A stretch of 64,000 nucleotides of DNA, from assembly GCA_030765135.1 (NCBI GenBank), contig JAVCDC010000020.1, forward strand, positions 10,916 to 74,915, given 5' to 3'. The notes beneath the pieces are model-generated. The model was given only the letters and a program-made list of their open reading frames with translations. It was not told where the DNA came from and did no database searches. This document shows, piece by piece, positions 49,970-63,557 of the stretch; position 1 is the stretch's first letter, and each line of letters starts with the position of its first letter. The DNA is from Candidatus Tritonobacter lacicola (GTDB taxonomy: Bacteria > Auribacterota > Tritonobacteria > Tritonobacterales > Tritonobacteraceae). The position numbers and the translations under genes are program-made.

Positions 49970-51529
49970 TCACTTTTCAATGTTGGAATTTTTCTTATTC
50001 AGAAAAATTCCAAGCCCTTTGTCCGAATTATACACGGGATACAGCCTGAAGCCCTCCACCCGCGGCTGGTGGACCCAGATGTCCTTCTTGTGCCAGAGGA
50101 AGACCCACGGGGCGTCTTCGACGATCATCCGCTGGGCGTCCCGGTAAAGCCCGGCGCGCTTACGTGCATCGACGGTCACCCGCGCCCTCTCTATAAGCCT
50201 GTCAACACCGGGGTTGCTGTATTCCGCCCTGTTGCCGAGCGGGCCCCGGTTCGATGAGTGAAATGTGGGGAAGAGGAAGTTCTCGCCGTCCGGATAGTCG
50301 GCCCACCACGATATGTAGAACAGATCGGCCTCGCCCGTGTTGATCGCCTCCTTGAAAGCGCTCCACTCGAGTTGAACGATATCTATGCCTAGCCCGGCCT
50401 CCCCGAGGTAATGCTGTATCGCCACAAGGCGGCCCAGGACCTTCCTGTCGGCGGGGCCGTAGAGCTTGATGCGCCCCTTCCAGCCTACCGCCTCAATGAG
50501 CCCGGCGGCCGCTTCCGGGTCATACGGATAACCCTTCAAGCCGGGGTCGTAACCCGGTATGCCGGGCGGGATCGGCCCCTTCGCCACGACGGCGCTGCCC
50601 GACAGGAGGGTCCGCACTATCATTTCCCTGTCCACCGCCATGTTGAGCGCCCTCCTGAGCCGCGCGTCGTCGAACGGAGGGCGCCGGCAGTTCATGCCGA
50701 TGTAATATGTATTCAGGCCCGGTATCTCCACGATCTGCTCCGGCATCCTCTTCCTCACCGTGGGGAGCTGGCTGTCCGGGACCTCCATGACGGATATGCT
50801 CCCTGCGTCGTACTCGGAGAGGGCGCTGAAGTCCTCCGGTATTATCCTGTACTCTATCGACGCAACGCCCGGAGACTCGCCGGTCCAGTAAGGGTTCCTC
50901 TCTAGAATAAGCTCGTAGTCATGCTTCCAGGAGGCAACCATGAAGGGGCCGCTGCCAACGGTCCCGCCCCCCTGACATCCCCCCGCCGGCACGACATAAA
51001 AGTTCGGCATCGCGAGGAGGCCCGGGAAGATCGCCAGGGGCTCCTTGAGCTCGATCTCCAGCTCACGGTCGCCGATGACCCGTATCCCGTCAATCTGCTC
51101 CGAATCCCCCTCCCTGAAGCTCTCCACACCAAGGATGGGGTCGGTCATCCAGCTTCTCGGAGAAGCTGTCTCAGGCGACGCGAGCCTCTCCATGGAGTAT
51201 TTCACGTCGCCGGATAGGACCTTCTCTTTGTTTGAGAAGAACGACTCCCGCAGGCGAAACCGGTACCTCTTACCGCCGTCGTGAACGCTCCAGGAGTCTG
51301 CCAGGTCGCCCACCAGGTTGAGCTTCTCGTCGTACACGAGGAGCCCCTGGTAGAGCTTCGCGCCGATGACGCCGCCCCAGTAATCGACGATCCGGGCCGG
51401 GTCGAGGGTGGAGGGGTCCTCCTCGAGCCTGACAACCAATCGATCCTGAACGGGCTCCCGACGGCCGCACGAAACAGCTGCCAGGAACGACAACCCCAGA
51501 AGAATCCAAATGTGCGCGCGAGCTCTCAT
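49970..51529 (-). CDS. Peptide ABC transporter substrate-binding lipoprotein (SBP family 5, OppA/DppA-like)
   Basis: Start placed at MRARAHIWILLGLSFLAAVSCG (lipobox); the ORF-track extension to 51673 is unlikely. Family-5 SBP body. Confidence 0.8.
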   Translation of the reverse strand: MRARAHIWILLGLSFLAAVSCGRREPVQDRLVVRLEEDPSTLDPARIVDYWGGVIGAKLYQGLLVYDEKLNLVGDLADSWSVHDGGKRYRFRLRESFFSNKEKVLSGDVKYSMERLASPETASPRSWMTDPILGVESFREGDSEQIDGIRVIGDRELEIELKEPLAIFPGLLAMPNFYVVPAGGCQGGGTVGSGPFMVASWKHDYELILERNPYWTGESPGVASIEYRIIPEDFSALSEYDAGSISVMEVPDSQLPTVRKRMPEQIVEIPGLNTYYIGMNCRRPPFDDARLRRALNMAVDREMIVRTLLSGSAVVAKGPIPPGIPGYDPGLKGYPYDPEAAAGLIEAVGWKGRIKLYGPADRKVLGRLVAIQHYLGEAGLGIDIVQLEWSAFKEAINTGEADLFYISWWADYPDGENFLFPTFHSSNRGPLGNRAEYSNPGVDRLIERARVTVDARKRAGLYRDAQRMIVEDAPWVFLWHKKDIWVHQPRVEGFRLYPVYNSDKGLGIFLNKKNSNIEK

Positions 51530-51967
51530 ATATTTCTTAACACAGAATCGCAAATTCATATATTGACCATTTATTTTATCCATCGTCAAAGACATATTAT
51601 GATTCGAATCATATTTCTCGATACGCAGCTCGCCATTTTCGTAAAATTGAATCCGGTGCCCTGTCAAGTTCAAATCAACTGTCCCTTCTCCTTGATTCTC
51701 ACTTTCGAGCGCCTGTCCAGCTTTATCGCCGGGAAAGCGAGAATGTCATAAGGGATGTTTTTTTCGCTTATAGCTGACAGCTTTTCGTGGCTACTTTGCT
51801 CCGAAATCCGGGGCGCAGACGGCTTAAAAAGAAAGGGGAAAGATGCGACCCCTCACGCCCCCCTCACGCCCTTATTATAAATTTTCTCAAAATATATACT
51901 TGGCACCCCGGATCATTGATCGTTTATTGCTGTCCCTGATTATCAGATTATCAACTGGGCAGAGATT

Positions 51968-53218
51968 TCATGGGCTTAAAATTAGCGGTTTCTGCTTTGG
52001 TCCAGGAGTGTTTGAGCTAGGCACAAAAATGTCCGGGATCTCTCTGAAAACATTCCGCAAGCCAATTCTTAAATAAGGATTCTCTGCAATATGGAGGGCT
52101 AAAGAAAAGGTATGGTCATGATTAAATATCACGCGAATAAAAAGAACAGCATGTATACGAAGGTTGATTCCAAAATTGGAATTTTTCTGCCCCCAAAAGC
52201 CATCTTGAGAGTTACTCGGGGTAGCTTTTATATTGTCTGCATCTATGGGGGTATCATAATCCGGAACGGGGATTGTATATATAGGCTGCCCTATTAGCGT
52301 GTAATATAGGGACTTGGGATCCATTATGATAGAGGATTCCAAGATTGAAGATATAACGATTGGGAAAGGATAATTATCAAGCTTTTTTTGTAAACGCCTG
52401 ATAAAGCGATTTGGGTTGGGATCGCCAGTAGCGAATCCTAAAGTTGCTCCCATATAAACTAACCCTTTATTTGCTCTTGGATGCAGAGTAAACTTAATAA
52501 AAGCGCCATTATGACTTATTTTATGTATTGCCCTTTTGCTTGAATGCCAATCGCCCAAATTGGCAACATAAGATAAAAGTGCTTCTCCCATGCCATTAAA
52601 ATTCCCTTGGTCATTTGGAACAGGAGTGCCTTGGAGAAAAATAAAAAATTCACCTTTGATCGTCTTAAGTTCGTCGAGGAAACGAGACATATTGTCATCG
52701 AATTGGCGCATGATTATTTCTTGCGACATGTAGAAGGCCTCAACAAAGAAACTAGTGTATTGTGTTCGCGCATAGAAATCTGGGGTTCGGCCCGCTATTA
52801 GTGGTTCATACTTAAGATTCTTTATATATTGGGAAAGAACCCATCCAGTTATGAGGTTTCCTAATGCGCCACGGAAGTTTCCATCATGAAATGAAGTAAG
52901 GTGGTTTCTTAGGGATTCGCTTTTTTGTATACCTTCAGGGAGAGACTTCCACATGCGATTAAGTTGATCTAATCGTTTATGGCGATGTTTGATATCAGAT
53001 AACATTCTCCCCAACATTCTATGCTTCAACTCTTCATTTTGTTCTATTTCTTGAAGGAGCTTGTTAATCACTTGCTGGGAAAAGACCATATCATTATCTC
53101 CTTTTCTTCGTGGACGCAGGGTTTGTTTCATATATCTGTAAATGAACCAAGAAGCGAGAATTAGAAATATTGTAACCAGGATCAAAGAGTATGGTGGTAT
53201 TAAGAACGGCATCAGCAA
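51968..53218 (-). CDS. Hypothetical membrane-anchored protein (416 aa): N-terminal TM helix, predicted coiled-coil, about 300-aa globular C-terminal domain; last gene of the RM operon
   Basis: N-terminal hydrophobic helix LILVTIFLILASWFIYRY; helical region with heptad-like pattern. Strongly AT-rich. No recognisable domain. Lies 63 nt downstream of the hsdR stop on the same strand. Confidence 0.5.
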   Translation of the reverse strand: MLMPFLIPPYSLILVTIFLILASWFIYRYMKQTLRPRRKGDNDMVFSQQVINKLLQEIEQNEELKHRMLGRMLSDIKHRHKRLDQLNRMWKSLPEGIQKSESLRNHLTSFHDGNFRGALGNLITGWVLSQYIKNLKYEPLIAGRTPDFYARTQYTSFFVEAFYMSQEIIMRQFDDNMSRFLDELKTIKGEFFIFLQGTPVPNDQGNFNGMGEALLSYVANLGDWHSSKRAIHKISHNGAFIKFTLHPRANKGLVYMGATLGFATGDPNPNRFIRRLQKKLDNYPFPIVISSILESSIIMDPKSLYYTLIGQPIYTIPVPDYDTPIDADNIKATPSNSQDGFWGQKNSNFGINLRIHAVLFIRVIFNHDHTFSLALHIAENPYLRIGLRNVFREIPDIFVPSSNTPGPKQKPLILSP

Positions 53219-53281
53219 GTGGGCGATGGGGATATCGCTGTTGATTCCTTCGCAACTTAGTTGGAATTATTGAGTTAGCGA

Positions 53282-56200
53282 TTATGCCGCTTCTTCACCT
53301 GTCCATTCGTGGCAAAGAACCTCAGCTTGCTCCAAAACCGTTTTGGTGGCCTTCTCCTGTTTATCGGGCGGATAGCCGTACTTGCGCAGGATACGCTTCA
53401 CGATAACGCGAATCTTCGCCCTGGCATTCTCACGCATGGTCCAATCAATAGTCACGCTTCTTCGGACGGCGGTGACCAGCTCCTGCGCAATAGTTCTTAG
53501 CGTCTCGTCGCCGAGCACTCTGACCGCGCTATCGTTGACTTCCAGTGCGTCATAGAAGGCTACCTCATCCTCGGAAAGTCCTAGATCTTCCCCGCGTTTC
53601 TGCTCCTCCCTCATCTCCTTGGCAAGCTTGATCAACTCGGCTATCACCTGGGCCGTTTCGATAGTACGGTTCTGGTATTTCCGGATCGCCTCTTCGAGCA
53701 TCTCCGTGAACGATCGCCCCTGAACGACATTCTTCTTCAGCCGCACCTTTATCTCATCCCTTAGAAGCTTCTGGAGGAGCTCGACCGCGAGATTACGATG
53801 TGGGAGTTCTTGTACCTCTGCCAGGAACTCATCAGAGAGAATCGAGATGTCCGGCTTCTTCAGCCCGGCGGCAGCGAAGATGTCAACAACCTCATCAGAG
53901 CTAATAGCCTTGGATACGAGTTGCTGAATAGCGGTATCAAGCTCCTCTTGGGTCTTCACATCTCGTTCAATCGTGGCTTTTGCCAGAGCGCTCCGGACCT
54001 CCTGGAAAAACCCGACTTCATCCCGAATCTTGATCGCCTCTTCGTGCGGCACCGCCAGGGCGAAAGCCTTGGACAGGACTGTTACCGCATATAGGTACCG
54101 CTTCTTGCCATCATCAAGGGAAAGAATATGCTCCATTGCCGCCGCGATACCCGCCATGCGCTCGGCAGCCTTGGCCAATAAAAGTAGCCTATAGTCAAAA
54201 CCATGGAACATGCCGCAGACGATCTCGTATTTCTCAAGCATGATAGCCACAGCTTCTTCCTGGTCAATCGTTGCCTTACCGTGACCACCGCTGGCCGTGT
54301 AATCGGATAATGCCCGTTTTAGCTGATCGGCCAGGCCAAGATAGTCCACTACAAGCCCGCCGGGCTTATCTTTGAATACCCGATTAACGCGAGCAATGGC
54401 CTGCATCAACCCGTGGCTCCGCATGGGCTTATCCACGTACATGCTGTGCATGGACGGGCAGTCAAACCCCGTCAGCCACATATCGCGCACGATGACCATT
54501 TTCAGGGGGTCATTCGGATCCTTGAAACGCTTGGCAAGCGCCTCACGGCGAACTTTGTTACGGATATGTGGCTGCCAGTCCAGATTATCCGACGCGGAGC
54601 CCGACATCACTATCTTGATCGCCCCCTTATCATCGTCGGCATGGTGCCACTCAGGCCGCAGTTCGACGATTGCGTTGTACATGTCCACGCAGATTCGGCG
54701 GCTCATGCACACTATGAGGGCCTTGCCCTCCATGGCCTCCAAGCGGCAATCGAAGTGCTCAACCAAATCCTCCGCGACTAATCCGATACGCTTCCCCGTC
54801 CCGACCATGGCCTCCAGGCGAGCCCACTTCGTCTTGAGCCTCTGCTTTTCTGACTCTTCTTCTCCCTCCGTTACCTCCTCGAACTCCGGATCGATTTTCG
54901 GCCTCTCCTCGTCTAAAAGCTCTATCTTGGCCAGCCGGCCTTCGTAATAAATGCGGACGGTTGCTCCGTCTTCGACGGCGCGAAGAATATCATAGGTGTC
55001 GATGTAATTCCCGAAGACTGCGGGAGTGCTTCGGTCATCACGCTCGAGGGGTGTCGCTGTAAACCCGATAAACGAGGCATTGGGCAGGGCGTCCCGCATA
55101 TGCCGGGCGAATCCATCGATAAAATCATACTGGCTGCGGTGGGCCTCGTCCGCGATCACCACGATATTCTCGCGCTCAGATAGCGCCGGGTAGGATTCTC
55201 CTTTGATCTCGGGGAAAAACTTCTGGATGGTAGTGAAAATCACCCCCCCGGATGCCACCTGGAGCAATTTCCGGAGGTTTTCCCGGCTTTCAGCCTGCAC
55301 GGGCGTCTGGCGAAGCAGAGCCTTGCACCCGGAGAATGTTCCGAAGAGCTGATCGTCGAGATCGTTGCGGTCGGTAATCACAACAAGAGTCGGGTTCCTC
55401 ATGGCCGGGTGGCGAATGATCTTCCCGCCGTAAAAGACCATCAGAAGGCTTTTACCGCTGCCTTGCGTGTGCCAGATAACACCGATGCGCCGGCCGCCGA
55501 AGTGCTTCGACCCCGGGCCAAAGGAGACGGAAGTCTCCTTCACTAAAAACGGGTCCACATCCTCCGGAGCCGGGAATCTCCCGTAGAGCTGACCCGGCTC
55601 AGCCTCGATGCCGCACGCGCTCAAGGTGCAATCCACTGCCTTGTTGACCGCGTGATACTGGTGATAGGCCGCCACCTTCTTGAGTACCTCCGCTCCGTCA
55701 TCTTCCAAAACAACGAAATTCAAGATCAAATCCAATAGACGATGCTTGTCGAACAAACCTCGAATCAGCGTCTCAAGGCCAGGCATGACTTCGCCATCGG
55801 TCTGTTCCTCACTGCCAGGCTCACGATAGAGATCCGTTCCGTCTATAGTGCGCCACGGCATGAAGCGCTCCCAATTGGCAGTAAGTGTACCAATACGTGC
55901 CTTTAAACCATCGGCAATGACCATAATCTCGTTGAATGTAAACAGGCCGGGGATGTCGTTCTTGTATGTCTGTAACTGGTTAAAGGCATGGCGGATTGTC
56001 GCCTTCTCATCGGCGGGATTTTTTAACTCTATCACCGCCAGGGGCAAACCATTGATAAAGATTACAATATCAGGGCGGCGATTATTTCGATTCTCAACCA
56101 CTGTAAACTGGTTGACCGCCAGCCAATCGTTATTCTCAAGGTTATCCAGATCCACCAGCCAAACCTTATCGAACACCTCGCGGCCATTATCCATGTAAGA

Positions 56201-56497
56201 TACATCAATGCCTTCGGTGAGCATCCGGTGAAAGCGACGGTTGTTCTCTATCAGACTTGCTGTTTCCGTTCTGATAATTTGGCGTATAGCATCATCAATC
56301 GCAGACGGAGGGATATCGGGGTTGATATTTTCAAGCGCAATTCGCAAACGCTCTTCAAGCACAACCTGATCGTAGCGCTCGCGCTCAACTCCAAGCTCGT
56401 CCGGACTGATGAAAGGTCCAAATTTCACTGCATAGCCAAGGTTCTCGAACCAGGCAAGGGCTATTTGTTCCAATTGGTTTTCGGTTATACCGCTCAT
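53282..56497 (-). CDS. hsdR: Type I restriction enzyme R subunit
   Basis: HsdR N-terminal domain ([22 protein letters not shown]); SF2 helicase motifs [15 protein letters not shown] and [12 protein letters not shown]. 1071 aa. Confidence 0.95.
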
Positions 56498-56680
56498 TGA
56501 TTCATCTTCGCCCTTTAACGTGTCTGATACAATCTCTCCGTGAAACCGCCTTTCTAAGTAAATTGCTAGTAAAGCTGCCGCAACTCGTCAATGCTGATAT
56601 CCGTTACTAAAAAAATCTCAAAGCAAATCTCACATAAAACCCTATCATAACGATCTCAACTTTTATCTCAGCGAGGTATA

Positions 56681-58597
56681 TTATTCCCAATCCCCGAAAT
56701 CAATACCGATAGCTTTAGACTCCTTTTTGAGGAATCGTTTTTGACATAACTCTTCGATATGTCTGTGAATTCTCCGAACAGTAGTGCCGAAAATCAGATT
56801 TGCTAACGTCATAATAGCTAAAAAGGCAGAGGTGCAGAGCAGAAGCACCCATCCTAATGCTGATTGCATATTGATGTACCCGAATATGACTCCAGCCAAG
56901 AGAAGAACTGAGATAATACCTGAAACCGCCCATGCAAAGTATTTTGCTTTCCTTTGGTACTTCCAGAACAATCTCTGTTGTAGAGCTTTCTTCTCGATCT
57001 CAGTTAACCTCAATTTTTTCTGTGTCTCTCCATGGGCGGTTTGCTCCTCTTTAAATTTTTCATATTCCTCCTTTTTTATCTCCTTCGTTACACGAGCCAA
57101 GGTTTCCGTAATTGCTTCAGGGGTAAGTGCAGCCTCTTCACCCAGCGTAAGCCTCATAAGTTCATCTTGGGCAAAAACACTACTGCGTAATAGCTGATGA
57201 TCGCGTTCTGAGATTTTGCCATTCTTTTCTAGTTGATCAATTTCAGATAGATACTTGTCTAAAAGCTCCTTCGAGGGCTTAAGTGCTGCATACGAATAAG
57301 CAATCACTTCGATAGTTGGAAGAGATGGTGCTCCCATGGGAGCTTTTAACCACGCCATGTTTGCTAAACTAAAATCCGTTATGACAGTTGATACTTCGTA
57401 GGACTCTTCATGTTTCTTTCCATATTCATAAGCTGCCTTTGAAAAAGCAGAATTGCTTGTTACCAAGACAGCCTTACATTTCTCTATAATAGAAGGTGAT
57501 TGGCCTTTTCTTAGGGCATAAATACTTCTTACGGAATTAATATCATATTCTCGCGCTCGGGGATTGAAGTAACTCACCTCATCATCCAGAGCTTTCTCGA
57601 AGGCATTCTCATCGATTTGAAAATCAATAATATATTGAGGAGTGCTCTTCACTTCGATATTGGCGTCTTCAAGAAGATCATCAATCTTGCCAGCCACAAG
57701 CAGTAGGTCGGATTTAGTCGCCCCCTTTCTCCGGGATTCCATAACGACAGCTCCTCGCCCATTGGAATAGTCAATATGATTAGCAGCTCCTCTGACGACA
57801 CGTTCGAGTTCGTCTCGCGAGTGGTTGAATGTTGCCACCTTGGCCCCGAGATTACGCAATAAAATTATTAGCTCTTCTATCGCATGATGCTTTGCCTTAC
57901 CCTCTAATCCTAGTCGCTGCACAAGTAGTGGAGTGTCCAGATAAAATATAACTCTCTTATAAGATTTCGGTGCATCATGCAGGTCTGGACACAAGAGCGC
58001 ATTGGCCAACATATGACCTTGTACTAAAATCATCATACTATCAAATCGCTCTAGGTCATTTTCCCGAAGGTGAATGATATATTGGCTTACCAGAATAATG
58101 TAAGCATTTTGCTTTCCAACAAGGTTGGGGATGGCAGTTCCTCGCAGATACGCTCTTATGCAAGGGATTGAGAATTCTGAGAGAAATGCACATAGTGCAT
58201 CGACTGCCTCATCTCTGGTAGAGATTGGAGAATAAGCACCCTGGCGGAAAGCGAAGAGGCCAGATATGACTGCGTCGATGTGCCTATCGGCATCAGCCTT
58301 CTTGATATTAATGTTTGGGTTAGGCAATTCTCCCTTGATATGATATACCCCTTTGGACTTCTGGAGGGGATGCTTTCGTGATATACGCCGCAGGATAATC
58401 TGAGCAGATCGTGGGGGTATTTCCAACCCAAAATCACTGAGGAGGTATTGCACCACCACCTGATCAGTTACCGGACTTGGTTCATGATCGATTAGTACCT
58501 GAAGAATAAAAGGACGGAGATACTCAAGGTAATCACTTCCTTGGTCAATGTTTACTTTGAGCATTGCCAAACTGGTCAATGTTGCTGTAGATGCCAT
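56681..58597 (-). CDS. Hypothetical 638-aa protein embedded between hsdS and hsdR: soluble N-terminal about 530 aa, charged helical segment, two C-terminal TM helices
   Basis: No Walker, HEPN, HKD or NTase motif recognised. C-terminal hydrophobic helices FAWAVSGIISVLLLAGVIFGYI and GWVLLLCTSAFLAIMTLANLIFG. AT-rich codon usage like the rest of the island. Confidence 0.6.
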   Translation of the reverse strand: MASTATLTSLAMLKVNIDQGSDYLEYLRPFILQVLIDHEPSPVTDQVVVQYLLSDFGLEIPPRSAQIILRRISRKHPLQKSKGVYHIKGELPNPNINIKKADADRHIDAVISGLFAFRQGAYSPISTRDEAVDALCAFLSEFSIPCIRAYLRGTAIPNLVGKQNAYIILVSQYIIHLRENDLERFDSMMILVQGHMLANALLCPDLHDAPKSYKRVIFYLDTPLLVQRLGLEGKAKHHAIEELIILLRNLGAKVATFNHSRDELERVVRGAANHIDYSNGRGAVVMESRRKGATKSDLLLVAGKIDDLLEDANIEVKSTPQYIIDFQIDENAFEKALDDEVSYFNPRAREYDINSVRSIYALRKGQSPSIIEKCKAVLVTSNSAFSKAAYEYGKKHEESYEVSTVITDFSLANMAWLKAPMGAPSLPTIEVIAYSYAALKPSKELLDKYLSEIDQLEKNGKISERDHQLLRSSVFAQDELMRLTLGEEAALTPEAITETLARVTKEIKKEEYEKFKEEQTAHGETQKKLRLTEIEKKALQQRLFWKYQRKAKYFAWAVSGIISVLLLAGVIFGYINMQSALGWVLLLCTSAFLAIMTLANLIFGTTVRRIHRHIEELCQKRFLKKESKAIGIDFGDWE

Positions 58598-58711
58598 GCT
58601 ATACCTCCTCGGCTATCTTTTTTATGCCTTACATTTCGATGGCCCGGAACGTCCAGCTAACGAAAGATTATCCAAGAACTTTTCGCTCTTTCTTATTAAT
58701 AAGCTCGCGAT

Positions 58712-59926
58712 TTAATTATTTCCCTCTAGGAACTTCTCATCGTACGATACGCGAAATTCACCGGAAATCAGTTTGGGCAAGAGTGTGTCGCGGGTTTGAG
58801 TAAGAGTTCTGACTTCAATATCATTGATGATTTGTTTCTCAATAAAAGGCGTAAGGCATCTATTCATGGCGGATAGAAGATTACCAGGTGGGACAAGTAC
58901 CTTAGCATCAGTAAGATGATGTCGTTTGATGTGCCCCATGGTTGTGGCTTTATCGGCAGCGATGCGCTGGAATTCTTCTAAATGTTTTATGGTCCAAAAG
59001 TAATAGAACCACTTCGGGAATTGAGACGAGGATACCTTAAAAACATGCTGATTAAGCACGCCTTTACCATTGCACCAAATCTTGACTAATAAGCTTCCCG
59101 ACCATGAAAAAAGTATATCACCATCACGAACTATATACTGACTGGGAACGTTGGAAGTTGCCCTGTCCGTATTCTCCGTAATCCCTTGTCGGAGTTCTCT
59201 GATCTTGATAACTGGCAATGAATCGTCATCTTCTGGAGGATACTTCTGGCAAGCTAAGCCATTGAGATATTCCGCAATTTCATCCAATGATCTAACCTCC
59301 CACTCTTTCGGTATTTCACCCAATTCCAAATCCTCGAAGCTGTCGGGGAAAAGATCGGCGATTTCTTTAGGCAGGCCCGTGTCGCGGCCTTCGGCCTTGG
59401 CGCGGACCGGGTCGAAGTCCACGAACCAGCTCTTGAAAATCGCCCTAGCCATCGCCTCCAGCGTCTCGTTTATCCTCCGGTTCAGCACGATTTTATCGTC
59501 GAGTGAGCCAAGGATATGAGCGATAGCTCTTTGTTCAGGAAGAGGGGGGCAACAGCACGGCAAAACTTTCAACCCTGATTGTGTAACAAGGGGTTGGGCG
59601 CTTCCGATTGCAGATCGATCGATCTGTAATGATTTCATCAGGTAGTACAGGAAGCGGAAATCGTTTCCGTTTTTAGGCGTTGCGGCAATGGCATTGTCTG
59701 TTACCCAATTTGGGCCGAATGCTGCATGTACTGAGCCACAATATGCTCCAACTCGGCCTACAACAACGATTGAAACCTCGTTGAGAATTTCATTCGTCCG
59801 GGCTATGACACCATTTGCCCCCCAGACCAGATAATCCCCGTCCCTACAATAGAAGGTATTTTTAAGCCCCTTCCCGTTCTTAAAGTCGGCTATTGCTCCA
59901 AGTGTAGTTTTAACCCACTTATCCAT
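58712..59926 (-). CDS. hsdS: Type I restriction-modification specificity subunit
   Basis: Start at MDKWVKTTLGAIADF (typical HsdS N-terminus). Two target-recognition domains separated by a central conserved helix (LPEQRAIAHILGSLDDKI). Ends with the conserved C-terminal helix region. Confidence 0.85.
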   Translation of the reverse strand: MDKWVKTTLGAIADFKNGKGLKNTFYCRDGDYLVWGANGVIARTNEILNEVSIVVVGRVGAYCGSVHAAFGPNWVTDNAIAATPKNGNDFRFLYYLMKSLQIDRSAIGSAQPLVTQSGLKVLPCCCPPLPEQRAIAHILGSLDDKIVLNRRINETLEAMARAIFKSWFVDFDPVRAKAEGRDTGLPKEIADLFPDSFEDLELGEIPKEWEVRSLDEIAEYLNGLACQKYPPEDDDSLPVIKIRELRQGITENTDRATSNVPSQYIVRDGDILFSWSGSLLVKIWCNGKGVLNQHVFKVSSSQFPKWFYYFWTIKHLEEFQRIAADKATTMGHIKRHHLTDAKVLVPPGNLLSAMNRCLTPFIEKQIINDIEVRTLTQTRDTLLPKLISGEFRVSYDEKFLEGNN

Positions 59927-60513
59927 GGCAAAGCTCCCCGCCAGGGTTGCCTTGAAATATACCCAGCTCATGAACACGCTCGAAAAACATATCTATAAGT
60001 TGCGATTTTATCGGCATGTTACGACGACGTGTCGATATTATCAATGTGTCATTGCGAGAGCAATTCAATGTAATTTCGTGCCGCCAACCCTGGATTCCAG
60101 GGGTAAATCGGTAGATTAGGCCAGAACATCGGTAGATCATCGGTTGCTTTGATGCCATGGCTCAGGTCCTTGAACCGATAATTTCGCGTCAACCATCGAT
60201 AAATTATCGATAGATTCAGTGATATCCCATCCGGCCCTTGGATCGGTCGATTTCTATAAATCGTCGGTCGATTATCGGTCGATTTCGTCCTCGAGTTTGG
60301 CAACATTCTTCCTGAGTTTACCGATTTATTACCGATTTTCTCCATGAGGACACATTGCATGAGGCAGTTGAGGCATTTCTGAGTCATTTTATTTGCCCCT
60401 CTTGCCCCTTTCCTTAAGGATTTGACGGGTTTATGTCGGGTTTCGTGTCCCCATTGTCCCCACTATGTCCCTATTCCTGGTTATTGCCCTTGCCTCATTG
60501 ATTTCTTTTTGAC
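59927..60513. promoter_or_regulatory. 587-bp non-coding region upstream of hsdS with a 17-bp perfect palindrome and three direct repeats of [ag]tcggtcgatt
   Basis: atcgataaattatcgat palindrome at 60196-60212. atcggtcgatt at 60242-60252, gtcggtcgatt at 60263-60273, atcggtcgatt at 60274-60284. Further atcgg / ccgat words throughout. gtcccc-type direct repeats at 60440-60475. Confidence 0.35.
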
Positions 60514-61711
60514 TTATTTCCTGCGGCCCGATTTCTTAATATCCCCCTTGATCCCGTCCTCAATCTGCTTTGCTGAAGGGAGTTCGGCTTTCAATTTCGA
60601 TGGTAGAACCCTATAGGTTGCCACGCCCATGGGTTTGGTCGTATCGCGTAGGGCATATTCAACAATGAGCCGATTCCGTTCCTTACAGAGAATCAGACCG
60701 ATTGACGGCTGGTCATCGGGATAACGTAGGAGATCATCCACCGCTGAGAGATAAAAGTTCATCTTTCCGGCAAATTCAGGTTTGAATGGTACGACTTTTA
60801 AATCAATGACGATAAAGCATCGAAGGTGGAGATGATAAAAGATGAGATCAAGGTAGTAGTCCTCACCTCCGACTTCCAGATGCTGCTGCTGGCCAACAAA
60901 AGAAAAGCCTTTGCCGAGTTCGAGCAGGAAATCTTTAATCCGGCCGAGGAGTGCCTGTTCCAACTGCCTTTCGGAGAGATCGGAGCCGAGACTGAGAAAA
61001 CCGAAGTTGTAGGGGTCCTTAATAAGCTGCTGGGCGAGATCGGACTGTGGTGCGGGAAGAGTAGCCGGAAAATTCGTCAGCGCCTTGCCCTGGCGCCTGT
61101 ACAACTTGGTTTCGATCTGATGAATCAGTACGGAACGCGCCCAGCCATGTTCCACTGCTTGCCCTGCATACCATAGTCTCTGGAGGGGGTCCTTTAGCTT
61201 CTCGATAAGAACGACATTATGAAACCAGGGCAATTCCGTCATGACTGGCGGGGGATTGATTCCGTTCATCTGTCGCGCAAGTTGCGCGATTTCTTTCTTG
61301 CTCAAATCTCGCGCAAACTGCGCGAGATTTGCACCCTCTTTTTCATATGCAAGGTAAAATGCGCGCATACGCCATAGATTACTCCCCGAAAATCCTCGTA
61401 TTCCCGGGAATTCTCGCTGTAAATCCTTTCCCAGCCGAGTAACAACAGACTTCCCCCAACCTTCTATCTTTTGCTGTTTTACGATATCTTTCCCAATCCT
61501 CCAATAGAGCAGAATCAGTTCCCTGTTGGAGGCTAAAGCAGCTCTGATCCGAGCATCGCGTATCTTGCGCTTTAACTTTTCAAGAAACGAAGCATAGCCT
61601 TTTGGTAAAAGGGTTTTGGATTTCGATATTTTTCGTTTGGACTGAATGATAAAAGTATCCCCCGACTTTTTCCGCTCGGGATTTGTATGCACCCCTTTGC
61701 GCATCAAGATT

Positions 61712-61734
<23 letters not shown>
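60514..61734 (-). CDS. DUF1016/YhcG-family PD-(D/E)XK nuclease-like protein embedded between hsdM and hsdS
   Basis: N-terminal region [15 protein letters not shown]...[26 protein letters not shown]-(D/E)XK core [25 protein letters not shown]. Overlaps the hsdM 3-prime end by 23 nt. Confidence 0.75.
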
Positions 61735-63310
<1,576 letters not shown>

Positions 63311-63557
63311 CAGTGCACTCCTTTAATCCAGCAGATATACACTATCATTCATGTTTTCTACTAACGAACCCCGCAGACCCGCATTTTAGCATTAATATTA
63401 TAGCTCAGGAAGCCAAAGAGCACTCGATAAAGGGTTCCCAAATCTTCGCCATCAAGAATAAGTTGTAGAATATGGATATTACTGGATTAGGACGTGGTCT
63501 TACTATTGCTATGGCGAAAACACTTCCTCCTGTTGCTAATTCAGTGATGTGTAGTTA

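Follow-up and report, generated by a model that had tools for sequence, protein, structure and literature searches.

The window, a stretch of 64,000 nucleotides from Candidatus Tritonobacter lacicola, carries a type I restriction-modification (RM) cassette on its minus strand. A 638-aa ORF, here called X, lies between hsdS and hsdR, at the coordinates given for it in the first-pass annotation. The cassette contains the following features:

53282..56497, minus strand: hsdR, the operon partner downstream of X (Pfam HSDR_N, SWI2_SNF2 and T1RH-like_C)
56681..58597, minus strand: X, a complete ORF (ORF call; many full-length homologs; identical protein on at least 24 contigs)
58604..58610, minus strand: Shine-Dalgarno sequence of X, GAGGAGG, 6 nt upstream of the ATG (read from the sequence)
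58712..59977, minus strand: hsdS, the operon partner upstream of X (Pfam Methylase_S, 5.5e-28)
61712..63310, minus strand: hsdM, the first gene of the cassette (N6_Mtase, 1.2e-106; HsdM_N)

In full, the gene order of the cassette is hsdM-DUF1016-hsdS-X-hsdR.

X is listed as an ATG-initiated ORF of 638 codons plus a stop, and its ribosome-binding site is strong. Inspection of the sequence between hsdS and hsdR revealed no terminator-like site, and in the best explanation of the locus X is co-transcribed with hsdM, hsdS and hsdR. The contigs that encode the identical X protein come from independent samples. A word-indexed search has identified more than 1,248 homologs of X, and a second search of this kind with a diverse-profile query mostly returned the same central clade. 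An exhaustive search extends the family to 4,027 representatives (clusters at 50% identity), which are spread over many bacterial phyla. Since the homologs form such a large family and nearly all of them are about 640 aa long, X is a real gene and not a chance ORF. The X query has no match at E<=0.1 in Pfam, PADLOC or PHROGs, and its sole match in NCBIfam, to TIGR01218, is sub-threshold and at chance level (E 0.032; 14 bits against a cut-off of 35). Diverse family members likewise give no significant match to the profile libraries. Judging from these searches, the family is unnamed and is covered by no Pfam, NCBIfam, PADLOC or PHROGs model. PDB sequence searches with the single sequence, a full-length profile and a domain-only profile returned only coiled-coil, transmembrane (TM) or histone noise, and a BFVD fold search returned only tape-measure and long-helix noise.

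With 28 close homologs as input, AlphaFold2 (AF2) gave a poor first model of X (pLDDT 62.6); the model used in its place is based on 120 sequences and reaches a pLDDT of 90.3 and a pTM of 0.79. Conservation was assessed over 120 diverse homologs with 30-66% identity. Together they suggest the following architecture:

58532..58597, minus strand: residues 1-22, a conserved N-terminal helix, with D22 in 112 of 120 homologs (AF2 and conservation)
58328..58531, minus strand: residues 23-90, a winged helix-turn-helix (HTH) of three helices and a beta-hairpin wing (AF2 secondary structure, Foldseek and conservation)
57968..58327, minus strand: residues 91-210, a helical linker or bundle with the conserved motif GHMLANALLCPDL at its end (AF2 and conservation)
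57338..57967, minus strand: residues 211-420, a PIN-like alpha/beta domain with two helical insertions (AF2, Foldseek, invariant residues and a sub-threshold PIN_3 match in a distant homolog)
57122..57337, minus strand: residues 421-492, a conserved helical domain with DHQLLRSS and LTLG motifs (AF2 and conservation)
56948..57121, minus strand: residues 493-550, a charged, Lys/Glu-rich stalk helix continuous with TM helix 1 in the model (AF2)
56870..56947, minus strand: residues 551-576, TM helix 1 (AF2 and conservation)
56786..56854, minus strand: residues 582-604, TM helix 2, preceded by a short unconserved loop (AF2 and conservation)
56684..56785, minus strand: residues 605-638, a basic, probably amphipathic C-terminal helix, predicted to be cytoplasmic (AF2 and a K/R-rich flank)

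The winged HTH carries a conserved arginine, R71, in its third helix and has weak Foldseek matches to the PadR, VanR and GntR regulators. N199 in the linker is present in 118 of 120 members, and 26 of the 58 stalk residues are charged. The model places the helices at the C-terminal end at residues 493-575, 580-603 and 607-630, in agreement with the Lys/Glu-rich helix and two C-terminal TM helices noticed in the first-pass annotation.

The N-terminal 530 residues had been regarded as a possible new sensor domain with no recognisable motif. Instead, they contain the winged HTH and an alpha/beta domain of predicted PIN topology with invariant residues at the catalytic positions. The AF2 strands of this domain, at residues 217-220, 253-257, 315-317, 376-380 and 405-407, are each followed by helices in the order b1-a-a-b2-a-[insert]-b3-[insert]-a-b4-a-b5-a. 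Members of the PIN superfamily fold into a Rossmannoid alpha/beta/alpha sandwich whose central sheet has five parallel strands (PMC5499597), and the modelled topology of the X domain matches that PIN topology one to one. A Foldseek search of the PDB with the model, a check proposed at the outset, gives PIN proteins as its only high-probability matches, namely HARP 7og5 (prob 1.00, TMt 0.54), PAE2754 1v8o (prob 0.98, TMt 0.60) and, as a third, HARP 8kd9, all with weak E-values of 0.1-0.9. Six residues, D221, H259, E263, D352, R363 and N382, are invariant in all 120 family members. D221 follows b1 within an FYLDTPLL motif, E263 lies in the helix following b2, D352 in the helix preceding b4, and N382 follows b4 within a T-x-N motif where the canonical motif is T-x-D. 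In the model, D221, E263, D352 and N382 thus occupy the four canonical PIN/VapC catalytic positions, with Asn replacing the fourth Asp, and the same four positions are occupied in genuine VapC ORFs. Members of the PIN superfamily bind metal through well-conserved acidic residues where the core strands end on their C-terminal side, and X has acidic residues at the first three of these positions.

X therefore resembles the VapC-type, HARP/PIN_5 and PIN_3 members of the PIN superfamily in its predicted five-stranded parallel alpha/beta/alpha fold with the same order of elements, in the DT after strand 1, in the Glu of the helix after strand 2, in the Asp of the helix before strand 4 and in the T-x-(D/N) after strand 4. 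It differs from them in its two large helical insertions, in the invariant Asn at the fourth position and in the additional invariant His259 and Arg363; furthermore, the domain is only one part of a 638-aa protein that also has a winged HTH, a stalk and a TM hairpin, and it has no antitoxin partner. At the sequence level, an Enterococcus faecium plasmid homolog with 23% identity to X matches Pfam PIN_3 with an E-value of 5.9e-4 (21 bits against a cut-off of 27), and this match spans exactly b1-D to b2-E, at the position equivalent to the X domain. PIN (PF01850) is matched by 3 of 48 domain-only family members, all at E>=0.15. An hhalign comparison of X with four VapC ORFs from the fetched loci gives a probability of 0.25%, with alignment at the DT motif only, and neither Pfam, PDB profile searches nor hhalign yields a significant sequence-profile match to any PIN-clan family. 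A weak match to Mrr_cat (PD-(D/E)xK), seen in 6 of 48 members with a best E-value of 0.016, was rejected because it covers VLVTSNxxF only and because the strand-helix alternation of the domain is not the restriction-endonuclease fold. PIN domains are typically RNases. The modelled fold and invariant residues suggest that the X domain is a putative, probably Mg2+-dependent nuclease with D221, E263, D352 and N382 as its putative active site.

Two hydrophobic 19-mers are present at the C-terminus in 115 of the 120 homologs. The mean number of K and R residues is 3.7 and 2.6 in the flanks of the hairpin as against 1.0 in the loop, and X is predicted from this distribution to be an inner-membrane protein with both its N- and C-termini in the cytoplasm. 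Conservation peaks in the alpha/beta core (0.66) and falls to its lowest values in the TM helices (0.27) and the loop (0.19). This contrast between a soluble part that is the best conserved and a hairpin that is the least conserved suggests that the enzymatic effector is the soluble part and that the hairpin acts as an anchor. The hairpin may also have a pore-forming role. Two-TM effectors are common in defence systems, and a generalised form of the first-pass reading would make X a pore-forming abortive-infection effector, in which sensing of phage nucleic acid or protein by the winged HTH and PIN-like head would activate the protein, whose stalk and TM hairpin would then assemble into an oligomeric, CorA/MCU-like funnel; the membrane would be depolarised and the cell would die. 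The persistence of the hairpin across the family is consistent with this, and so is the order of elements at the C-terminal end: a long stalk helix runs on into TM1 and is followed by a short loop, TM2 and a helix in the cytoplasm, as in CorA- or MCU-type two-TM channels. Weak, compositional Pfam matches to DUF2207_C (24 of 41 C-terminal fragments, best 2e-5), MCU (7 of 41), S_4TM (2 of 41) and CorA (1 of 33 full-length members) point in the same direction. However, the loop and TM helices lack a channel-type signature in addition to being the least conserved, and invariant Asp, Glu, Asp and Asn residues at PIN catalytic positions are hard to square with a pure sensor. A pore-forming effector is thus an unlikely reading of X.

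The first-pass annotation had also likened the TM pair to SLATT modules, which are associated with nucleotide-signal-generating enzymes (SMODS, TIR and similar). X shares with SLATT and other two-TM modules a C-terminal TM pair after a helical region and a defence context. The likeness to SLATT goes no further: SLATT is missing from the matches listed for 33 full-length members (E<=0.05) and from the 25 families that 41 C-terminal fragments match most often (E<=10), and the TM pair of X lies in its least conserved region. Clustering of the neighbours at 80 X loci revealed no conserved nucleotide-signalling or other signal-generating genes, which, like the missing SLATT matches, also counts against the pore, and membership of X in SLATT was rejected.

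The genomic context was sampled from these 80 loci, of which 55, from many phyla, are well flanked. The RM-linked slot proposed in the first-pass annotation is a recurrent home of the family: X directly follows hsdS in 21 of the 55 loci, and in 30 an RM-type gene, including type IIG and other methyltransferases, lies within 7 kb. The only recurrent partners of X are HsdS, HsdM and HsdR. Other neighbours include MmeI-like, N6_N4 and DUF1156 methyltransferases and GmrSD, AbiE, Fic and MNT/HEPN genes. At loci with no nearby RM gene, X stands alone, in some cases on plasmids, where lone copies lie between IS elements. A 416-aa neighbour in the window was considered as a possible partner of X and was rejected, being missing from 80 of 80 related loci.

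X takes the place that prrC has at the prr locus, between hsdS and hsdR. One reading is therefore that X is a PrrC-like guard, bound to HsdMSR in a latent form until an anti-restriction protein of a phage inactivates the enzyme, whereupon X would be freed to act as a suicidal RNase. The usual RNase activity of PIN domains fits this reading, as do the overlap or abutment of the hsdS stop and the X start in most RM-linked loci and the finding that all RM-linked copies are housed in one type I family, with mean identities of about 69% for HsdM and 67% for HsdR. The hsd genes are, however, present at only 25 of the 55 well-flanked loci, and some of the other copies lie beside type IIG or N6_N4 methyltransferases or alone on plasmids. 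X also does not co-diverge with the enzyme: Mantel correlations of X with HsdM (r 0.10) and HsdR (r 0.18) are not significant, whereas that of HsdM with HsdR is 0.86 (p 0.0005). An integral type I RM subunit was rejected on this ground. Because 30 of 55 loci lack hsd genes and co-divergence is not seen, the comparative data argue against an obligate dependence of X on the type I enzyme. In PrrC and RloC, an ABC-type NTPase carrying a Walker A motif forms the N-terminal part and a nuclease of the HEPN type the C-terminal part. In X there is no NTPase domain and no match to a PrrC or RloC model in PADLOC or Pfam; as previously noted, the query has neither a Walker A nor an HKD motif, Walker A occurs only incidentally in 8 of 120 homologs, and three Rx4-6H matches are present in X but are not conserved. 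Membership in PrrC/RloC was therefore rejected. Among readings of the slot, a defence role is the most plausible, and features of PrrC and RloC are not found in X. A guard of this type is an improbable reading, more so than the pore.

X shares with PrrC/RloC and other restriction-linked ORFs (TgvAB, RloF and GmrSD-like; PMC11411939) the slot inside hsd operons and a presumed role as a complementary second line of defence, but it lacks the ABC-type NTPase, HEPN anticodon-nuclease, DUF262 and GmrSD domains of these proteins, is predicted to be membrane-anchored and is often found away from hsd genes. It is very unlikely that X is no immune effector but a membrane-tethered winged HTH regulator or a toxin-like addiction module stabilising RM cassettes and plasmids: an N-terminal winged HTH with a membrane anchor does recall membrane-bound transcription regulators, some members carry the automated annotation 'predicted transcriptional regulator', X is found between IS elements on mobilisable plasmids, and about 10 of 80 copies are disrupted, as expected of a costly or toxic gene, but X is large, its enzyme-like domain rather than its winged HTH is the most conserved part, no cognate antitoxin or other conserved partner gene is seen among the 80 clustered loci, and X is strongly enriched beside RM genes of several types.

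The best explanation, given about an even chance of being correct, is that X acts autonomously as a single-gene module of defence type, accompanies RM systems and consists of a membrane-anchored stalk with a winged HTH and PIN-like nuclease head. Its autonomy is supported by the lack of co-divergence with HsdM and HsdR and by the lone copies between IS elements on plasmids. The RM slot and the defence role of the first-pass interpretation are retained here, and the SLATT module and the new sensor domain are not. Precedents are defence genes that act independently inside type I RM operons (PMC11411939), the coupling of PIN-like genes with type I RM (PMC5499597) and SNIPE, a defence nuclease bound to the membrane. 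In the proposed mechanism, the C-terminal TM hairpin would anchor the charged stalk helix of about 60 residues, and the stalk would bear the conserved cytoplasmic head, in which the winged HTH would bind nucleic acid next to the PIN-like nuclease domain. Such tethering may hold the nuclease away from the chromosome and bulk RNA and station it at the entry points of foreign nucleic acid or at the source of a phage-induced signal, so that the head could bind and then cleave invader DNA or RNA. X would thereby complement the type I enzyme, which is limited to unmodified DNA with its target site.

SNIPE, a membrane-bound GIY-YIG nuclease with a shown defence phenotype, cleaves phage DNA during injection (bioRxiv 10.1101/2025.11.03.685801). 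X is predicted to share with it a membrane anchor, an elongated helical connector, a nucleic-acid-binding domain and a nuclease domain facing the cytoplasm, and both are widespread and encoded by a single gene, with a poorly conserved anchor region. In contrast, SNIPE consists of a single N-terminal TM helix, DUF4041 and GIY-YIG and has no homology to X, in which the polarity is reversed, with the winged HTH and PIN-like head N-terminal and the two-TM hairpin C-terminal. Neither DUF4041 nor GIY-YIG gives a Pfam match in X or is among the matches listed for 33 full-length members. X would thus be analogous, and unrelated, to SNIPE.

X makes a good candidate for a new anti-phage defence encoded by a single gene. 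More tentatively, and with less than even confidence, it can be proposed that X is an unrecognised, very widespread single-gene immune system that has been repeatedly recruited by RM systems of several types. Either a stalk-held PIN-like nuclease with its own DNA-binding domain would strike entering nucleic acid at the inner membrane and, like SNIPE, use location to distinguish self from non-self, or nucleic-acid sensing would be coupled to a CorA-like two-TM pore. If X is a defence gene, it would be the second case of spatially restricted nuclease immunity, unrelated to the first, and would add to the PIN-like superfamily a new, divergent branch with an Asp-to-Asn active-site variant, and it would help to explain frequent RM-operon passengers as a second line against restriction-evading phages. 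Members of the X family also occur on clinical plasmids of Enterococcus and Klebsiella.

X, the 638-aa ORF under study, was placed by the first-pass annotation at a length and position that match the ORF listing, and it lies between the hsdS and hsdR genes of a type I restriction–modification (RM) locus. The minus-strand gene order is hsdM, a DUF1016/YhcG gene, hsdS, X, hsdR and a 416-aa ORF, as follows.

63310..61712, minus strand: hsdM (Pfam, unambiguous)
61734..60514, minus strand: DUF1016/YhcG PD-(D/E)xK gene, between hsdM and hsdS
59977..58712, minus strand: hsdS (Pfam, unambiguous)
56681..58597, minus strand: X, 638-aa ORF with an ATG start
56497..53282, minus strand: hsdR (Pfam, unambiguous)
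53218..51968, minus strand: 416-aa ORF of unknown function, after hsdR

A Shine–Dalgarno sequence, GAGGAGG, is located 6 nt 5' of the ATG of X. Since no terminator-like site was found between hsdS and hsdR in the window sequence, X and the RM genes are likely to be co-transcribed. The G+C content of the RM block (about 51500–63400) is 0.40–0.55, lower than the 0.60–0.63 of the oligopeptide ABC-transporter genes next to it, consistent with an island gained by horizontal transfer and set among housekeeping genes. Independent metagenomes supply at least 24 contigs with the identical protein and locus, and the source annotation is a Candidatus Tritonobacter lacicola MAG.

A locus scan with one genome per species, in which neighbours were assessed by tblastn and neighbour clustering, yielded 80 loci with X homologs (labelled L001 and so on) from more than 15 phyla. 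The sole recurrent neighbours are HsdS (33 loci) and HsdM (30) upstream and HsdR (28) downstream, nearly always on the strand of X. Among the 55 loci flanked by 5 kb or more of sequence on each side, hsdS is upstream in 21 and some hsd gene is present in 25, so that the slot between hsdS and hsdR does recur in related genomes. By general expectation, rather than from a formal genome-wide background, well under 1% of random genes would abut hsdS. X starts 114 nt after the hsdS stop in the window, and the spacing is mostly −4 or −1 nt in the related loci, where ORFs were called by a longest-start rule that may exaggerate some overlaps, implying translational coupling at those loci. Several loci without hsd genes adjoin other RM-type genes by Pfam annotation. 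L014 and L024 share a three-gene arrangement of an N6_N4 methyltransferase of about 1,000 aa (1,038 aa in L024), X and a 691-aa UvrD-like helicase, perhaps a separate RM-like system into which X has been taken up at the corresponding position. A DUF1156/N6_N4 methyltransferase and an AAA-PDDEXK_9 protein are near X in L047, an MmeI/Eco57I-like type IIG enzyme in L021 and an N6_N4 methyltransferase in L023. By iterative searches, 30 of the 55 well-flanked loci have an hsd gene or some other DNA methyltransferase no more than 7 kb from X, and 3 further ones have DUF262/GmrSD-like neighbours. L089 is a defence island with AbiEii/AbiEi, GmrSD, HsdM, HsdS, a transposase, X and HsdR, and the RM locus of L082, with Fic, MNT/HEPN and an HSDR_N remnant, is decayed. 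Plasmid copies of X lie between IS elements, and X is isolated in the remaining loci. In three gammaproteobacterial loci with no RM gene nearby (L044, Methylovulum; L060, a Porticoccaceae MAG; L067, Microbulbifer), X directly follows a conserved gene pair, presumably nrdAB from a reading of its first gene by eye as nrdA; this conserved non-defence position is left unexplained by the RM-companion picture.

HsdM and HsdR co-diverge tightly over 14 loci (r 0.86, Mantel p 0.0005), whereas X follows neither HsdM (r 0.10) nor HsdR (r 0.18), both correlations being non-significant. This marks X as a passenger that has moved between cassettes of a single type I family and also into different RM settings; a role as an integral type I subunit is rejected. 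Frameshifts or insertions disrupt about 10 of the 80 copies (L058, L069, L037, L051, L062, L063 and L074–L076), with a 443-aa transposase-like ORF inside X in L069, which suggests that X is frequently inactivated. Such decay is common in costly defence genes.

X gave no match at E≤0.1 in Pfam, PADLOC or PHROGs, and a single sub-threshold one in NCBIfam (TIGR01218, E 0.032, 14 bits against a cut-off of 35) that is at chance level. A word-indexed search found more than 1,248 homologs. The best 120 are all about 638 aa long, 59–66% identical to X and spread over Chloroflexota, Nitrospirota, Binatia, Armatimonadota, Kiritimatiellae, Zixibacteria and others, and none of them has a Pfam domain or a meaningful name. 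An exhaustive profile search returned 4,027 representatives (50% identity) at E≤1e-3, nearly all full length, and 1,766 at E≤1e-30. Distant members (21–29% identity) are borne on plasmids of Enterococcus faecium, Klebsiella quasipneumoniae, Pantoea, Arthrobacter and others as 'hypothetical protein', and none occurs in 50,697 phage records. The family is thus very large, horizontally mobile and covered by none of the libraries tested. One 732-aa homolog, P0120, has 93 extra N-terminal residues that look like a minimal nucleotidyltransferase (GSRADWTTKDSSDLDLAL) and probably derive from read-through out of an MNT-type antitoxin gene upstream; there are also MNT/HEPN pairs immediately 5' of X in L082 and in neighbour-analysis cluster 6.

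A first AF2 run with 28 close homologs was poor (pLDDT 62.6) and was superseded by a second with 120 sequences 30–66% identical to X (pLDDT 90.3, pTM 0.79, no segment below 50), which predicts the following parts.

Residues 1–22: conserved N-terminal helix
Residues 23–90: winged HTH (wHTH) of three helices and a beta-hairpin
Residues 91–210: helical region
Residues 211–420: alpha/beta domain
Residues 421–492: helical domain
Residues 493–575: single 83-residue helix, followed by a short loop
Residues 580–603: second hydrophobic helix
Residues 607–630: basic C-terminal helix

The first 58 or so residues of the 83-residue helix are highly charged (26 of 58 are D/E/K/R) and the last 25 or so are hydrophobic. 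The charged segment and two C-terminal transmembrane (TM) helices noted earlier from the sequence are borne out by this model and by two hydrophobic C-terminal segments in 115 of the 120 members. The flanks average 3.7 and 2.6 K/R per 15 residues and the loop 1.0 over the 120 members, and so the positive-inside rule predicts an N-in/C-in hairpin with the entire head in the cytoplasm.

PIN domains have five parallel strands with helices on both sides and acidic residues at the C-terminal ends of the strands (PMC5499597). The element order of the modelled alpha/beta domain, b1(217–220)-a-a-b2(253–257)-a-[three-helix insert]-b3(315–317)-[helix]-a(346–363)-b4(376–380)-a-b5(405–407)-a, is the same except for two insertions. 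With the 638-aa model as query, Foldseek against the PDB gave nothing at E≤1e-3, and its sole high-probability matches are PIN proteins: 7og5 (HARP, a protein-only RNase P; prob 1.00, TMt 0.54), 1v8o (PAE2754; prob 0.98, TMt 0.60) and 8kd9 (HARP). FEN1 and an exosome entry with Rrp44 are lower in the list, and the N-terminus weakly matches PadR, VanR and GntR. Asp-221, His-259, Glu-263, Asp-352, Arg-363 and Asn-382 are invariant in all 120 sequences, and Glu-330, Glu-372, Asn-199, Asn-413, Trp-416 and Lys-418 are conserved in at least 117. Four of the six invariant residues occupy the canonical VapC-type positions: Asp-221 after b1 (FYLDTPLL), Glu-263 in the helix after b2, Asp-352 at the start of the helix preceding b4 and Asn-382 after b4 (VLVT-S-N). 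Genuine VapC ORFs in the fetched loci have (F/L)VDTS, E, D-x-L-I-A and N-D there. The E. faecium plasmid homolog has an independent sub-threshold Pfam PIN_3 match (E 5.9e-4) whose profile positions 1–56 cover exactly b1-D to b2-E. All sequence-profile tests for PIN fail: PF01850 matched 3 of 48 domain-only members at E≥0.15, hhalign against four VapC sequences aligned only the DT motif (probability 0.25%), and PDB profile searches with the family were negative. Despite this, the structural matches and the invariant residues suggest that the domain is quite probably PIN-like in fold and active-site geometry, and that it forms a new, highly divergent family whose signature is the invariant fourth-position Asn.

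The best-supported reading is that X is an autonomous RM-companion gene with a putative defence function. A poorly conserved hairpin would tether its cytoplasmic head, a wHTH and a predicted PIN-like nuclease on a charged stalk, to the inner membrane. Conservation is 0.66 in the alpha/beta core against 0.27 in the TM helices and 0.19 in the loop, which favours the head as the functional core, with the hairpin serving as an anchor. A rival reading, in which the head is a sensor for a CorA/MCU-like two-TM pore effector, draws on weak compositional matches to DUF2207_C, MCU and CorA. A PrrC-type guard of the type I enzyme is another rival, and a membrane-tethered regulator or addiction module a third. 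The SLATT likeness proposed at first did not hold up, and X showed no PrrC or RloC features either. For a membrane-tethered nuclease, by analogy with SNIPE, an unrelated membrane-bound GIY-YIG nuclease that cleaves phage DNA during injection and becomes toxic upon TM deletion (bioRxiv 10.1101/2025.11.03.685801), tethering could keep a non-specific activity off the nucleoid and put it at the site of genome entry. X might then cleave DNA at entry as a direct defence, or RNA after activation as abortive infection.

Type I RM operons are already known to harbour defence genes (PMC11411939), PIN-like genes have been described as coupled to type I RM (PMC5499597), and SNIPE is a known example of a membrane-bound defence nuclease. 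What is new is the protein family, which none of the tested libraries contains, its repeated association with several RM types, the modelled wHTH/PIN-like/stalk/two-TM architecture and the D-E-D-N variant of the predicted active site.

The 416-aa ORF directly 3' of hsdR (373 aa by gene callers) has a hydrophobic N-terminus and a G+C content of about 0.40, the minimum of the region. It has no significant match in Pfam, PADLOC, NCBIfam or PHROGs (DUF6377 of Pfam, E 0.0056, is at chance level). Its absence from all 80 related loci rules it out as a partner of X, and it may be another orphan defence candidate. The DUF1016 gene, a second gene embedded among the hsd genes, encodes 406 aa with DUF1016_N and a YhcG_C PD-(D/E)xK nuclease, overlaps the hsdM stop by 23 nt and is recognised by the PADLOC model PDC-S02, a candidate defence family (E 4.5e-143); a gene of this type is also 5' of hsdS in L001 and at another place in L006. 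The gap of about 540 nt between it and hsdS (59978–60513), whose sole content is a doubtful 112-aa ORF (60049–60387), could hold a promoter, a small gene or a remnant.
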